The notes under the pieces are model-generated. The model searched no databases and was not told the origin of the DNA. It worked only from the letters and a program-made list of their open reading frames with translations. 64,000 nucleotides of DNA from Escherichia coli (GTDB lineage Bacteria; Pseudomonadota; Gammaproteobacteria; Enterobacterales; Enterobacteriaceae), in NCBI RefSeq assembly GCF_001677475.2, contig NZ_CP015229.1. One strand, written 5' to 3'. A program made the translations under genes and the position numbers. Below, in pieces: positions 2,641 through 63,042 of the stretch. Position 1 is the stretch's first letter, and the number at the start of each line of letters is the position of its first letter.

Positions 2641-3117
2641 AGGGTGCAGGAGACCAAACCATCACAATTCAGTACGCGGGGTTTTATCCCCGCGTGGTGG
2701 CTACTTCTTCGATTCGTAAGCGAAAACTGCCTTAAACTCCATACCACGTTCTCTGATACTCAACTCACACAACGAGTCGCCTACCATCAGCGTGAATCAT
2801 CGTACTGTACAACACAGTACGATGATTGCCACAAGGGCATATTTTGTCAGCATGTCTTGCCTCCCTGCAAAGAAGAGACTAACATTCGAATTGTTTGGGT
2901 TCGAACGTAAGCCTCAGGTTGATAGAAATATCGCCTGGGGCTTTTGTCCATCTGGAACCTCGCGAATGCTTAACGCCAGACAGCCTCAAGCACCCGACGC
3001 CATTCTATACCTGATAATTCTTCCAGCGGCGTTCACGTTTAAAATCAGGAATGCTGCTCGCAAAATAAAAACGCCCCCATCATTTCTGACAGAGGCGTTT
3101 AATTTATCCGGCAATAT

Positions 3118-23390: not shown

Positions 23391-25043
<1,653 letters not shown>

Positions 25044-25255: not shown

Positions 25256-26047
25256 TTAGAGATCAATTTCCTGCCGTTTTACCTGTTGCCAGACTTCTTC
25301 CATTGTTTCGAGGTCAACACCTGTCATTTCCAGTCCACGCGCGGCAACAATACGCTCCACTTCGCGAAAACGACGCTCGAATTTTTCGTTCGCTTTTTGC
25401 AATGCGATTTCCGCTTTTGTCCCTAAATGACGAGCCAGATTGACCGTGGCAAACAGCAGGTCGCCCATTTCCTCCTCCAGTTTAGCCTGGTCGATAACAG
25501 CCTGCCGTGCCTCGTACATCACCTCGTCGATCTCTTCGTAGACTTTATCGACTACCGGACCAAGCGTCGTCCAGTCAAAACCAACGTTGGCGCAACGTTT
25601 CTGGATTTTTTGCGCACGCATTAAAGCCGGTAAACTACGAGGAATATCGTCCAGCGCCGAATGCTGCGCTTTCTGCGCGCGCTCTTCGGTTTTGATTTGC
25701 TCCCAACGGGCAAGCACTTCACTACTGTTTTCGGCAGAACTGTAAGCAAAAACATGCGGATGGCGACGTTCTAACTTATCGCTGATCGCGGCGCAAATAT
25801 CATTAAAGTCAAAGCGCCCTTCTTCCTGGGCCATTTGTGCGTAAAACACCACCTGGAACAGCAGATCGCCCAGTTCACCGCGAAGATCGTCAAAATCTTC
25901 ACGGGCGATGGCGTCCAGCACCTCGTAGGTTTCTTCAAGGGTGTAAGGCGCAATGGTGGCAAATGTCTGCTCTTTATCCCACGGGCAGCCGTTTTCCGGA
26001 TCGCGCAGGCGCTGCATAATAGTGAGCAAACGGTCGATTTGATTCAT
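25256..26047 (-). CDS. mazG: nucleoside triphosphate pyrophosphohydrolase MazG
   Basis: 263-aa ORF MNQIDRLLTIMQRLRDPENGCPWDKEQTF... Confidence 0.95.
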   Translation of the reverse strand: MNQIDRLLTIMQRLRDPENGCPWDKEQTFATIAPYTLEETYEVLDAIAREDFDDLRGELGDLLFQVVFYAQMAQEEGRFDFNDICAAISDKLERRHPHVFAYSSAENSSEVLARWEQIKTEERAQKAQHSALDDIPRSLPALMRAQKIQKRCANVGFDWTTLGPVVDKVYEEIDEVMYEARQAVIDQAKLEEEMGDLLFATVNLARHLGTKAEIALQKANEKFERRFREVERIVAARGLEMTGVDLETMEEVWQQVKRQEIDL

Positions 26048-26117
26048 TGAATTGTCCTGAAAATTGCGGGTCTGTCAGGTGGAAACCTGTGACCAGAATA
26101 GAAGTGAGTAAGTAACA

Positions 26118-26453
26118 CTACCCAATCAGCACGTTAATTTTGGCTTTAATGAGCTGTAATTCCTCTGGGGCAACCGTTCCTTTTTTCGTTGCTCCTCTTG
26201 CCCGCCAGGCGATACTTTTTACCTGATCAGCTAACGCTACGCCATCACGTTTCTGACCGGATAAAACAACTTCGAACGGATATCCTTTTGATTGCGTTGT
26301 ACAAGGAACACACAAACACATACCTGTTTTGTTGTTGTACATGAACGGACTCAGGACAACAGCCGGACGATGTCCGGCTTGCTCGCTACCTTTTGTCGGG
26401 TCAAAATCAACCCAAATCAGATCGCCCGTATCGGGTACGTATCGGCTTACCAT
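26118..26453 (-). CDS. mazF: MazF endoribonuclease toxin (type II toxin-antitoxin)
   Basis: 111-aa [67 protein letters not shown]...; start overlaps the mazE stop by 1 nt. Confidence 0.96.
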   Translation of the reverse strand: MVSRYVPDTGDLIWVDFDPTKGSEQAGHRPAVVLSPFMYNNKTGMCLCVPCTTQSKGYPFEVVLSGQKRDGVALADQVKSIAWRARGATKKGTVAPEELQLIKAKINVLIG

Positions 26454-26701
26454 TACCAGACTTCCTTATCTTTCGGCTCCCCCCAGTCGATATTCTCGTG
26501 GAGGTTTTCCGGCGTGATGTCGTTGACCAGTTCAGCAAGCGTAAATACGGGCTCTTTACGCACTGGCTCAATAATTAATTTGCCATCCACCAGGTCAATC
26601 TTCACTTCATCATCAATATTCAGATTGAGCGCCTGCATTAACGTAGCCGGGATCCGCACTGCAGGAGAATTTCCCCAACGCTTTACGCTACTGTGGATCA
26701 T
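26453..26701 (-). CDS. mazE: MazE antitoxin
   Basis: 82-aa [50 protein letters not shown]... Confidence 0.96.
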
Positions 26702-26719
26702 AACCCTTTCCTCAAACCG

Positions 26720-26770
26720 CTATCATATGTAGATACAGTATATATCAATCTACATTGTAGATACGAGCTA
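26720..26770 (-). promoter_or_regulatory. mazEF promoter/operator region with alternating palindrome
   Basis: TGTAGATAC at 26728-26736 and 26755-26763 with inverted ATCTACAT between them, directly upstream of mazE; matches the known mazEF autoregulatory palindrome (from memory). Confidence 0.5.
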
Positions 26771-26778
26771 ATTTCGGT

Positions 26779-29013
26779 CTAACTCCCGTGCAACCGACGC
26801 GCGTCGATAACATCCGGCACCTGGTTGAGTTTACCCAGCACGCGGCCCAGCACTTGCAGGTTGTAAATCTCAATGGTCATGTCGATGGTCGCCAGTTGCT
26901 GTTTGGTGTCGCTACGGCTGGCAACGCCAAGTACGTTCACCTTCTCGTTGGCGAGAATGGTCGTGATATCACGTAACAACCCACTACGATCATTAGCCAC
27001 CACGCGGACCACCAGCGAATACCCGGCGGAGTAGCTCTCGCCCCATACCGCATCAACAATGCGTTCCGGCGCATGGGAGCGCAGTTCCGCCAGTTGTTCG
27101 CAATCGGCGCGGTGTACTGAAATACCGCGTCCCTGGGTAATGAAGCCGACAATCTCATCTCCAGGAATCGGCTGGCAGCAGCGCGCGATGTGGTGCATCA
27201 GGTTACCGACACCTTCAACCACCACACGACCGTTATCTTTACTGCGGTTTTGCGGTGTGTAGCTTTTTTGCTGAAGCTGTTTCAGCGCGGCGGCGTCCTG
27301 CTCTTCGGCACTCGGCTTATTAAATTGCGATTGCAGGAAGTTCACCATCTGATTGAGACGGATATCCCCGCCACCAATCGCCGCCAGCAACTCGTCGACA
27401 TCATTGAAGTTGTAACGCGGCAGCAGATGTTTTTCTGCTTCTTTCAGGCTGATCCCCAGATGTTCCAGCTCGTCGTCAAGGATTTGCCGCCCAGCCAGAA
27501 TGTTTTTGTCACGGTCCTGTTTACGGAACCAGGCGTGAATTTTCGAACGCCCACGGCTGGTTGTGACGTAACCGAGGTTTGGGTTTAACCAGTCACGGCT
27601 GGGGTTCGGCTGTTTCTGGGTGATAATTTCAATCTGGTCGCCCATCTGCAGCTGGTAGGTGAACGGCACAATGCGCCCGCCAATTTTTGCCCCAATGCAG
27701 CGGTGTCCGACATCACTGTGGATGTGGTAAGCGAAGTCCAGCGGCGTTGATCCCGCAGGCAAATCAACGACGTCACCTTTCGGCGTAAAGACGTACACCC
27801 GGTCGTCAAAGACCTGGCTGCGTACTTCGTCGAGCATTTCGCCGGAATCAGCCATCTCTTCCTGCCACGCAATCAGTTTACGCAGCCAGGCAATTCGGTC
27901 TTCATGTCCCGAACGTGCGCCGCCAGCTGCCGCGCCTTCTTTATATTTCCAGTGCGCAGCAACACCCAACTCTGCATCTTCATGCATCTGTTTGGTGCGG
28001 ATTTGGATCTCTACGGTTTTGCCACCCGGCCCCAGAACCACGGTATGAATAGACTGATAACCGTTTGGTTTCGGGTTAGCGACGTAATCGTCAAACTCAT
28101 CCGGCAGGTGGCGATAGTGAGTGTGCACTATCCCCAGTGCGGCATAACAATCCTGTAAACGCTCGGCGACAATACGTACCGCACGCACATCAAACAGCTC
28201 ATCGAAGGCGAGGTTCTTTTTCTGCATTTTGCGCCAGATGCTGTAGATGTGTTTCGGTCGACCATACACTTCAGCTTTAACGCCTTCAGCTTTCATCTCA
28301 GCGCGCAGATGGCCGACAAACTCTTCGATATAGTGTTCGCGGTCGAGACGGCGTTCATGCAACAGTTTTGCGATGCGTTTGTATTCGGTCGGGTGGAGAT
28401 AACGGAAGCAGTAATCTTCCAGCTCCCATTTCAGTTGCCCAATCCCAAGACGGTTTGCCAACGGCGCGTAGATATTGGTGCACTCTTTTGCCGCCAGTAC
28501 GCGTTCATCTTCCGGCGCATCTTTTACTTCACGCAGATGAGCAATACGCTCCGCCAGTTTGATGACCACGCAGCGAAAATCATCGACCATCGCCAATAAC
28601 ATCCGGCGAACGTTATCGACCTGTTCGGAGGAAACAGAATCAGTGTGCGTCGCTTTCAGCTGGCGGATCGCCGCCATATCACGCACGCCGTGAATAAGGT
28701 TAACGACAGACTTACCGACGCTCTCACGCAGCACATCTTCGCTGACTACGTTGGCATCGGCCAGAGGGAACAGCAGCGCCGCCCGCAGCGTGTCAATGTC
28801 CATACTTAATGTCGAGAGGATCTCCACCATCTCAACACCACGCCACAATAACAGACTGGCATCCGGATGCCCCTGCGTCTGTTGCAGACAATACGCCCAG
28901 GTTTCGGCTAAGCACTCACACGACTTCTGGCTGGTAATACCCAGACTTGCGATCCATTTTTCCGGATCAAATTCACCAGCCTTATTGATATGTGCACTTC
29001 TTACCGCAACCAT
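26779..29013 (-). CDS. relA: GTP pyrophosphokinase ((p)ppGpp synthetase I)
   Basis: 744-aa ORF MVAVRSAHINKAGEFDPEKWIASLGITSQ... Confidence 0.97.
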   Translation of the reverse strand: MVAVRSAHINKAGEFDPEKWIASLGITSQKSCECLAETWAYCLQQTQGHPDASLLLWRGVEMVEILSTLSMDIDTLRAALLFPLADANVVSEDVLRESVGKSVVNLIHGVRDMAAIRQLKATHTDSVSSEQVDNVRRMLLAMVDDFRCVVIKLAERIAHLREVKDAPEDERVLAAKECTNIYAPLANRLGIGQLKWELEDYCFRYLHPTEYKRIAKLLHERRLDREHYIEEFVGHLRAEMKAEGVKAEVYGRPKHIYSIWRKMQKKNLAFDELFDVRAVRIVAERLQDCYAALGIVHTHYRHLPDEFDDYVANPKPNGYQSIHTVVLGPGGKTVEIQIRTKQMHEDAELGVAAHWKYKEGAAAGGARSGHEDRIAWLRKLIAWQEEMADSGEMLDEVRSQVFDDRVYVFTPKGDVVDLPAGSTPLDFAYHIHSDVGHRCIGAKIGGRIVPFTYQLQMGDQIEIITQKQPNPSRDWLNPNLGYVTTSRGRSKIHAWFRKQDRDKNILAGRQILDDELEHLGISLKEAEKHLLPRYNFNDVDELLAAIGGGDIRLNQMVNFLQSQFNKPSAEEQDAAALKQLQQKSYTPQNRSKDNGRVVVEGVGNLMHHIARCCQPIPGDEIVGFITQGRGISVHRADCEQLAELRSHAPERIVDAVWGESYSAGYSLVVRVVANDRSGLLRDITTILANEKVNVLGVASRSDTKQQLATIDMTIEIYNLQVLGRVLGKLNQVPDVIDARRLHGS

Positions 29014-29060: not shown

Positions 29061-30362
29061 CTATTTAACGCGCGAGAAAAGTACCATCGATTCCAGATGT
29101 CCCGTGTGTGGGAACATATCCAGCATCGCCAGTCGCGCAATGGTAAATCCTGCTTTTAATAACGCTTCGCTATCCCGAGCCAGCGTTGCAGGGTTACAGG
29201 ATACATAAACTATACGAATAGGTTCCAGTTTTATAATTTGCTGCATAACACCTGCGGCACCTGCTCGCGCCGGGTCCAGCAACACTTTATCGAAGCCGTT
29301 TTTCGCCCACGGCTGCTTTGTGACATCTTCTTCAAGATTTTCGTGATAAAACGTCACATTCTGTAAGCCATTAAGACGCGCATTCTGCTGGCCTTTTTCC
29401 ACCAGCGCCGGAACACCTTCTACACCGACCACACTGGCAGCTTGTGTCGCCAATGGCAGTGTAAAGTTGCCCATTCCGCAGAACAGATCCAGTACGCGAT
29501 CTTCAGGTTGCACATCCAGCCATTCCAACGCACGCGCTACCATTTTTTGGTTCACACCCGCATTGACCTGAATAAAATCGCGCGGGCTAAAAGTTAAGCG
29601 CAACCCATTTGAGTCATACCAAGGCATCTCACCAGAGACGGTTTCGAGTATCTCACTATCGGGGGCGAGATACAGATCCAGGCCTTCAGAATGCGAAAAG
29701 CGTTCCAGTTTTTCGCGATCTGCCGAACTTAGCGGTGCGGTATGGCGCAAAATCATCAGCGTGCCGCTGGTTGCCTGTACCAGTTCAACATGACCAAGAT
29801 GGCGCATAGCTTGTAAGCTGCCCAGGCATGCCCTGACTTTGGGCAGCAATGCTTCAAGTTGGGGCACTAAAATGGGGCATTGTTTAACGTCGACAATGTC
29901 ACTGGAGCCCGCTTTGCGAAACCCCATCTGAAGTTGCTGTGTTTTCGGTAAGTAGTTCAGACTTAAACGCGCGCGACGGCGATAGCCCCAGGGAACATCG
30001 GCGATCACTTCAGAGACTTCGTGTTTCATTAATCGGGCGAGTGCCGCACTTTTGCTTCGCTGCTGTAAATCCACACTGGCGTGTTGTTGCTGACAGCCGC
30101 CGCATACGCCAAAATGAGGACAGCGTGGCGTTTCGCGTTCCGGGCTATCGCTTAACCGGCGTACGACTTTAGCGCGGGCATACTGTTTTTTATCTTCAGT
30201 AACAGTAACTTCCGCGTTTTCCTGCGGCAATAATCCGGGGATAAATAGCGTTTTGCCGTTATGTCGCGCCACGCCCTGACCAAAAGAGTCGAGGTCGTTG
30301 ACTGAAACGGTTATGATCTGACGCGTCGTCGTGCGTCGTTTTGCAGAGTAGAATTGCGCCAT
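29061..30362 (-). CDS. rlmD: 23S rRNA (uracil1939-C5)-methyltransferase
   Basis: 433-aa [46 protein letters not shown]...; Cys cluster [11 protein letters not shown]. Confidence 0.95.
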
Positions 30363-39473: not shown

Positions 39474-39518
39474 AAAGCAACCTCAATAAGAAAAACTGCC
39501 GCGAAGGATAGCAGGAAT

Positions 39519-39884
39519 AAAAAAAGGGAGCACTGTATTCACAGTGCTCCCGGTTCGTTTCGCAGCATTCCAGCTACTTTTGTTGCTCCCTGCTCATCCT
39601 TGACAACTTTTCCTCTGGCCTTGCGGCCAATCGTTCGTCCTGAACTATTGCTTCCTGCTCACACCACCCCGATGTGATACTTCATCCTGAAGTGTCCCTG
39701 GCCTTCCTGACCCACCGAATCATCCTGACCGGTTCTCATTCTCCATCCTGGAGGTGTCCTTTAACGCGTCCTGCGTCATCCTCTTCGCTTCGTCCAGAAG
39801 CCTTTCCCTGAAACACCATCCTGGTGTGTCCTTCAGAAGTGTCATCATCCTGATGTTCACTTCGTTGTCTGACTCCCTGTCGAC
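39519..39884 (-). ncRNA. csrB: CsrB regulatory sRNA (CsrA-sequestering)
   Basis: Minus-strand transcript begins GUCGACAGGGAGUCAGACAACGAAG (complement of 39860-39884), carries many GGA-containing CAGGAUG / AGGGA motifs (plus-strand CATCCTG / TCCCTG), and ends in a hairpin GGGAGCACTG...CAGTGCTCCC (39526-39551) plus U-run. Confidence 0.9.
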
Positions 39885-58053: not shown

Positions 58054-58259
58054 ACTTCCTGAGCCGGAACGAAAAGTTTTATCGGAATGCGTGTTCTGGT
58101 GAACTTTTGGCTTACGGTTGTGATGTTGTGTTGTTGTGTTTGCAATTGGTCTGCGATTCAGACCATGGTAGCAAAGCTACCTTTTTTCACTTCCTGTACA
58201 TTTACCCTGTCTGTCCATAGTGATTAATGTAGCACCGCCTAATTGCGGTGCTTTTTTTT
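58054..58259 (+). ncRNA. gcvB: GcvB regulatory sRNA
   Basis: Begins ACTTCCTGAGCCGGAACGAAAAGTTTTATCGG 7 nt after a TATAGT -10 (58042-58047), contains the G/U-rich region GTTGTGATGTTGTGTTGTTGTGTTTGC, ends with hairpin CACCGC-CTAATT-GCGGTG plus T8; divergent from gcvA as in E. coli. Confidence 0.92.
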
Positions 58260-61223: not shown

Positions 61224-61403
61224 GAGGTTATCCCTCACCCTAAACGCATAAATGCCTGATGCGCTACGCTTATCAGGCCTACATAACTCCTGCAATATTT
61301 TGGATTTGCATGAGTTGTAGGCCGGATAAGGCGTTCACGCCGCATCCGGCATGAACCACGCGCACTTAGTCAATAATCAGGATGAGAGGTTATCCCTCAC
61401 CCT
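61224..61403. repeat. BIME (two REP palindromes) flanked by perfect 18-bp direct repeats
   Basis: Direct repeats GAGGTTATCCCTCACCCT at 61224-61241 and 61386-61403; between them REP GCCTGATGCGCTACGCTTATCAGGCCTACA (61254-61283) and REP TAGGCCGGATAAGGCGTTCACGCCGCATCCGGC (61318-61350). Confidence 0.75.
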
Positions 61404-62744: not shown

Positions 62745-62821
<77 letters not shown>

Positions 62822-62854
62822 ATTAAAATTTGATGAAGTAAAGCAGTACGGTGA

Positions 62855-62931
<77 letters not shown>

Positions 62932-62965
62932 ATCAAAATTTGATGAAGTAAAAGCAGTACGGTGA

Positions 62966-63042
<77 letters not shown>

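Follow-up and report, generated by a model that had tools for sequence, protein, structure and literature searches.

An intact chromosomal mazEF operon at the relA-mazG site of Escherichia coli, with two MazF differences from K-12

Positions 26118-26778 of the 64,000-nucleotide stretch of E. coli DNA analyzed here (the whole stretch is called "the window") consist exactly of mazF, mazE and the spacer between relA and mazE. We read this interval as the chromosomal mazEF (chpAI/chpAK) type II toxin-antitoxin (TA) operon of E. coli, located at the relA-mazG site, and put the probability of that reading at roughly 0.96. The locus is an ordinary one and already known. The original prediction had described a canonical type II TA pair adjoining relA, with a 1-nt stop/start overlap and an alternating palindrome upstream, and had listed it as a known system with minor sequence variants. 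That description holds throughout: the two proteins pass the NF007386, NF007312, PemK_toxin and MazE_antitoxin models, the genes stand in the K-12 order, the overlap and the palindrome are both present, the latter with the K-12 sequence, and we found nothing new at the locus.

The arrangement of the genes is that of a type II TA operon, in which the antitoxin gene comes first and the toxin gene second, on the same strand and in overlapping frames (Table 1). At the junction the coding strand reads TAATG, base 26453 being common to the TAA stop codon of mazE and the ATG start codon of mazF. On the upstream side, 77 nt separate the relA stop codon from the mazE ATG, and mazG follows 70 nt downstream of mazF on the same strand. 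The corresponding K-12 system, MazE-MazF (ChpAI-ChpAK, b2783/b2782; structures 1UB4, 1MVF, 3NFC and 5CR2), has the same genes in the same order with the same neighbours and the same 1-nt overlap. Over the surrounding region, the gene order rlmD-relA-mazE-mazF-mazG-pyrG-eno is that of MG1655, and the window aligns to MG1655 (NC_000913.3, 2907500-2914500) at 98.2% identity over 7 kb with zero gaps. The placement is also the usual one for the species, as mazEF lies between relA and mazG, under annotated mazE/mazF, in 4418 of the 5426 complete RefSeq E. coli genomes. In the interval from mazF to mazG we found no terminator-like site on the minus strand, which is consistent with the reported co-transcription of relA-mazEFG; the K-12 literature likewise describes transcription of relA that can read through into mazEF.

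Table 1. Features of the mazEF locus, its neighbours and the RNA genes of the window (window coordinates)
Feature	Position	Strand	Description	Source or comparison
mazF	26118..26453	(-)	endoribonuclease toxin, 111 aa	ORF listing
mazE	26453..26701	(-)	antitoxin and autorepressor, 82 aa	ORF listing
Promoter/operator spacer	26702..26778	(-)	relA stop codon to mazE start	comparison with K-12
relA	26779..29013	(-)	GTP pyrophosphokinase, 744 aa; upstream neighbour	
mazG	25256..26047	(-)	nucleoside triphosphate pyrophosphohydrolase, 263 aa	NF007113, 368 bits
MazF codon 9	26427..26429	(-)	ACG (Thr); changed base 26428	K-12 ATG (Met)
MazF codon 68	26250..26252	(-)	AAA (Lys); changed base 26252	K-12 GAA (Glu)
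Antisense RNA aMEF (ameF, b4844)	26413..26812	(+)	400 nt	transferred from MG1655 annotation
Small hairpin, mazF codons 26-31	26361..26379	(-)	mRNA GCCGGAC-AUC-GUCCGGC	
CsrB	39516-39875	(-)	sRNA gene	Rfam, ARAGORN
GcvB	58054-58259	(+)	sRNA gene	Rfam, ARAGORN
ES036	61275-61317	(-)	sRNA gene	Rfam, ARAGORN
tRNA-Met(CAT) group	62745-63042	(+)	tRNA genes	Rfam, ARAGORN

Both proteins are identified by direct comparison with their crystallised counterparts. MazE matches K-12 MazE, and the E. coli MazE of crystal structures 1MVF and 1UB4, at 82 of 82 positions, and MazF is identical at 109 of 111 positions (98.2%) to the E. coli MazF chains 3NFC, 5CK9 and 1UB4 in the PDB; the phmmer E-values, 5e-72 for MazF and 5e-52 for MazE, exclude chance. 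Against the NCBIfam equivalog models, MazF scores 225.1 bits on NF007386 (cut-off 120; residues 1-111 of 111) and MazE 196.2 bits on NF007312 (cut-off 113). The corresponding Pfam families, PF02452 (PemK_toxin) and PF04014 (MazE_antitoxin), are matched at 85 bits (cut-off 23) and 52.9 bits (cut-off 24.7). The PADLOC defence-system models gave no match to MazE or MazF.

We checked the conserved residues of MazF in alignments of 50-110 orthologues. The residues E24, R29 and T52, which are invariant or nearly so across ~110 orthologues, are kept in the window protein as in K-12, and the translation also retains G10, G27, P30, N40, D76 and Q77, six residues whose conservation is evident from the alignment of orthologues. 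Roles for the conserved and catalytic residues of MazF (Arg29, Thr52, Glu24 and others) have been described (PMC10864209, PMC8086154). An AlphaFold model of MazF built from a 50-sequence alignment (pLDDT 87, pTM 0.82) contains seven strands and helices at residues 37-43, 83-86 and 96-110, that is, an SH3-like beta-barrel with a C-terminal helix. Given its 98% identity to the characterized protein, the window MazF is probably a ribosome-independent enzyme that cuts single-stranded RNA at ACA.

The relA-mazE spacer holds the regulatory sequences known from K-12. Its coding strand reads ...GTATCTACA-A-TGTAGAT-TGATATATACT-GTATCTACA-TATGATAGCGGTTTGAGGAAAGGGTT-ATG, with the two copies of GTATCTACA at 26764-26756 and 26736-26728 and the TGTAGAT between them at 26754-26748. 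This central element is complementary to the ATCTACA in both flanking copies (26762-26756 and 26734-26728), and the three together make up the mazEF promoter's "alternating palindrome", without a change from K-12. The function of the palindrome is attributed to the work of Marianovsky 2001, as cited in PMC5888573, and on the strength of that literature MazE would be expected to bind the copy in the window. A Shine-Dalgarno-like GAGGAAAGGG stands before the mazE ATG. The spacer differs from K-12 at only two bases, 26769 and 26778, both of which fall outside the palindrome. Sigma-70-like hexamers, TAGACC and TACAAT, occur at 26781-26754 as consensus matches only; the change at 26778 converts the -35-like TAGGCC of K-12 into the TAGACC of the window, again at the level of a consensus match only.

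The same region is expected to be covered on the opposite strand by the antisense RNA aMEF, which in K-12 extends over 2911051-2911450 (+) and which we placed on the window by the offset of the gap-free alignment. Followed along the operon, it lies opposite the 3' end of relA, the promoter, all of mazE and the 5' end of mazF, and seven single-base differences from K-12 lie inside it. The base responsible for MazF M9T corresponds to position +16 of aMEF. In K-12, aMEF stimulates the synthesis of both MazE and MazF, and an abundant monocistronic mazE transcript requires it; the study that reported these effects left the origin of that transcript open (PMC8749433).

Every sequence element needed by the K-12 mechanism is intact in the window, and by analogy with K-12 we can outline how the module would operate. 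The promoter within the 77-nt spacer would drive a joint transcript of mazE and mazF, supplemented by read-through from relA, and the TAATG overlap would couple the translation of the two genes. Dimers of MazE would bind dimers of MazF by way of the MazE C-terminal tail, blocking the RNA-binding groove, and MazE, by itself or in the MazE-MazF complex, would repress its own promoter by binding to the alternating palindrome. Once the labile MazE was lost (through ClpAP and Lon), MazF would be free to cut single-stranded RNA at ACA, its targets including its own mRNA and rRNA precursors, and translation and growth would come to a halt. The antisense RNA aMEF would modulate the expression of the pair. 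The same analogy suggests that this strain expresses the module in active form.

Several other systems resemble the window pair to different degrees. The chromosomal paralogue of E. coli, ChpBS-ChpBK (chpB), likewise combines a toxin of the PemK/MazF fold with an AbrB-type antitoxin. However, the window proteins reach only 54 bits (toxin) and 35 bits (antitoxin) on the ChpB and ChpS models, far below the equivalog cut-offs of 129 and 101, and chpB occupies a different chromosomal location, so we rejected the identification of the pair as chpB. The plasmid systems PemI-PemK (R100) and Kis-Kid (R1) share with the window the combination of PF02452 and PF04014, an antitoxin-first operon and an RNA-cleaving toxin, and the window MazF matches Kid (1M1F) at E = 4e-9; they differ in being plasmid-borne and distant in sequence, in acting through post-segregational killing and in having a different cleavage preference. 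A further group is formed by the orthologous mazEF pairs of other Enterobacterales (Salmonella, Pseudescherichia, Kosakonia, Pantoea, Providencia and Klebsiella aerogenes), whose MazF proteins are 67-85% identical to that of the window and which have the same mazE-mazF order with an overlapping or abutting junction. Unlike the window pair, these do not lie beside relA: the orthologues that we inspected (loci L008-L013) adjoin transposases, a resolvase, hok, parG, cas3 or higBA. Such neighbourhoods fit a view of mazEF as a mobile cassette.

Within E. coli itself the operon is not universal. It is absent from ~1000 of the 5426 complete genomes (about 19%), in which relA is followed directly by mazG, and this presence/absence polymorphism has already been described, as has the use of the same relA-mazG site by parDE in Salmonella (PMC7167474). 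Genomes without mazEF have a different relA-mazG spacer of 95 nt (locus L006:993-1087) that contains its own inverted repeat (GCTGGATA...TATCCAGC). Because this spacer differs from the sequences that flank mazEF in the window (26048-26117 and 26702-26778), the two states differ by replacement and not by a clean deletion. As a separate observation, divergence from K-12 amounts to 2.6-3.0% across mazG, mazF and relA (25256-29013) and to only 0.6-0.9% in the flanking pyrG and rlmD (23391-25028 and 29061-29862), and this step suggests that recombination has left a mosaic in the neighbourhood of mazEF.

Compared codon by codon with MG1655, mazF has 8 synonymous and 2 replacement changes (M9T and E68K) and mazE has 4 synonymous and 0 replacement changes, proportions that are consistent with purifying selection. 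For the neighbouring genes, the same comparison gives 58 synonymous and 0 replacement changes in the 2235 nt of relA, and 19 synonymous and 2 replacement changes in mazG (D102Y and V185I), the former arising from a two-base codon change, GAT>TAC. One of the synonymous changes in mazF, Thr93 ACA>ACG (window 26175), removes a MazF cleavage motif from the mazF mRNA, which has 8 ACA sites in the window and 9 in K-12; in the K-12 mazE and mazF coding regions we counted 2 and 9 sites, respectively, the numbers also given in the literature (PMC5888573).

These counts bear on whether mazEF might be a decaying or functionally silent remnant in this lineage. The operon is dispensable, as shown by the ~1000 of 5426 complete genomes that lack it while relA and mazG remain undisturbed (PMC7167474), and MazF carries two replacements where relA carries none in 2235 nt. 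Yet both reading frames are intact and of full length; the overlap, the Shine-Dalgarno sequence and the operator are unchanged; all catalytic and conserved residues of MazF are kept; and synonymous changes exceed replacements by 12 to 2 across mazEF. We regard decay or silence as highly improbable and continue with the interpretation of the locus as an intact operon.

The original prediction had quoted MazF as reading ...YVPDTGDLIW... and ...SGQKRDG..., had suspected that it was one or two residues removed from the K-12 protein, and had named pairwise alignment as the way to settle the matter. The peptides are as quoted, and the alignment with K-12 returns an identical MazE and two differences in MazF, M9T and E68K. 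To place these among E. coli strains, we searched the 5426 complete RefSeq E. coli genomes with short queries designed so that no 28-base seed could leave out the variant base. The Thr allele of codon 9 (a 31-mer query) occurs in 490 of these genomes, including that of the type strain ATCC 11775, and the Met allele of K-12 in 3919, so that Thr and Met together account for 4409 of the 4418 locus-bearing genomes. At codon 68, the Glu allele of K-12 was found in 3840 of the 5426 and the Lys allele in 0 of them with two query designs: the first, a 31-mer, could miss alleles with a flanking SNP, such as that of assembly L004, and the second, a 32-mer redesigned around this SNP, also had no match.

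M9T is a common allele, and E68K is rare, yet already deposited. The exact T9/K68 protein is public under the name "endoribonuclease MazF [Escherichia coli]" (e.g., ANO90587.1) on ~50 contigs. Over 6336 bp, a GenBank E. coli assembly (L003, GCA_043014985.2) is 100% identical to the window, and a further assembly (L005) is 99.9% identical over 6.3 kb. Assembly L004 encodes the same T9/K68 MazF from another mazF haplotype, five synonymous sites away from that of the window. This material speaks directly to the idea that the two MazF differences arose as errors in sequencing or assembling the window, in favour of which we can name only the rarity of E68K among complete genomes. The contigs with the identical protein represent numerous assemblies and read sets that are independent of one another, the matches of L003 and L005 to the window extend over 6.3 kb, and M9T by itself is present in 490 complete genomes. 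As the identical allele recurs in independent assemblies, M9T and E68K are real natural alleles; the error reading is in practice refuted, and we consider its probability next to nil.

In a wider comparison, no complete RefSeq E. coli genome exceeds 98.6-99.0% identity to the window, the maximum over positions 20000-44000 being about 98.6%. Draft GenBank E. coli assemblies, in contrast, reach 99.9-100% at the mazEF locus, and the source lineage seems to be without a representative among the complete genomes searched. The possibility that the window is not E. coli was rejected in view of the L003 match (100% over 6.3 kb) and the annotation of the identical MazF as an E. coli protein.

Both replacements fall at positions that are among the most variable in the MazF orthologue alignment. 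Across ~110 orthologues, position 9 is occupied by A, S, M, E, T, V, Q or C and position 68 by E, K, S, N, T, Q, R or D, with Lys the second commonest residue at the latter (18 of 110). In the AlphaFold model, residue 9 belongs to the N-terminal coil before strand 1 (11-16), and residue 68 to the beta4-beta5 loop (residues 65-70, between strand 4 at 61-64 and strand 5 at 71-74), a surface loop of lower confidence (mean pLDDT 77 for residues 61-70). The SamF inhibitor peptide fills the pocket of MazF that otherwise receives MazE residues 54-67 (site II), and it is contacted by M38, Y39, K42, G57-F60 and V108 (PMC12557383), none of which is near residue 9 or 68 in sequence. Neither residue is mentioned in the SamF paper (PMC12557383), in the mutant study of Tripathi 2014 or in papers on the substrate contacts of MazF (including PMC8086154). 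M9T and E68K thus represent natural variation at variable, solvent-exposed positions and are most likely neutral; with E68K found in 0 of the 5426 complete genomes, their neutrality is something that we infer.

A different interpretation would accept the operon as canonical but have E68K, alone or together with M9T, measurably change the behaviour of MazF. The substitution is a charge reversal adjoining R69, and the added positive charge could raise the affinity for RNA or alter the binding of the acidic MazE tail. It sits in the lower-confidence loop described above, and a structural paper on Klebsiella MazEF names the beta4-beta5 loop as one of three that differ between homologues and that might influence substrate recognition (PMC8086154). 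The allele, in addition to being absent from all 5426 complete genomes, occurs on at least two mazF haplotypes five synonymous sites apart (those of the window and L004), from which it follows that it has persisted or spread. On the other hand, the occurrence of Lys, besides S, N, T, Q, R and D, indicates that position 68 tolerates almost anything, the papers on SamF contacts at MazE site II and on substrate contacts omit both residues, and MazE is unchanged, which gives no hint of co-adaptation. That E68K has a functional effect is unlikely, and a measurable change in MazF behaviour strikes us as very unlikely; neutral polymorphism in an otherwise ordinary MazF remains our preferred account.

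Two of the synonymous changes in mazF, 26364 T>C and 26376 A>G, concern the two partners of a single pair in the small hairpin within the gene (Table 1), a perfect stem of 7-9 bp, and convert this pair from U-A to C-G. The hairpin is located immediately upstream of the aMEF promoter region. Among the 5426 complete E. coli genomes, the pair is U-A in 3002 and C-G in 1317, with U-G, the wobble intermediate, in 38 and a C.A mismatch in 2, which makes 4359 genomes in all. These haplotype counts match the expectation for a selected stem, but they go back to very few evolutionary events at tightly linked sites. Across six other genera, some orthologues keep the wobble-position pairs and others break them, the peptide A-G-H-R-P-A accounts for most of the inverted repeat, and the folding of the hairpin in its 81-nt context is modest (z = -1.66). 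We think it quite unlikely either that the hairpin is a selected RNA element, for example one that yields monocistronic mazE, or that E68K alters the RNA affinity of MazF, its flanking-base preference or its affinity for MazE. If the former were true, the hairpin would point to how the monocistronic mazE transcript arises.

Elsewhere in the window, a match to the Rfam sok antitoxin RNA at 2838-2995 (-), scoring 113 bits where the gathering score is 59, points to a putative type I TA locus of the hok/sok type near cysJIH-like ORFs. Rfam and ARAGORN also found the CsrB, GcvB and ES036 sRNA genes and three tandem tRNA-Met(CAT) genes, a set that agrees with the K-12 map of this region.

The physiological role of chromosomal mazEF is disputed, with proposals that include stress response, programmed death, phage defence and a selfish element (PMC7167474). 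The present locus matters very little: it confirms an intact textbook mazEF on an E. coli chromosome and puts on record a common allele of MazF (M9T) and a rare one (E68K), both of which are in public databases. Its sole value would be as a natural-variant control for structure-function work on MazF.
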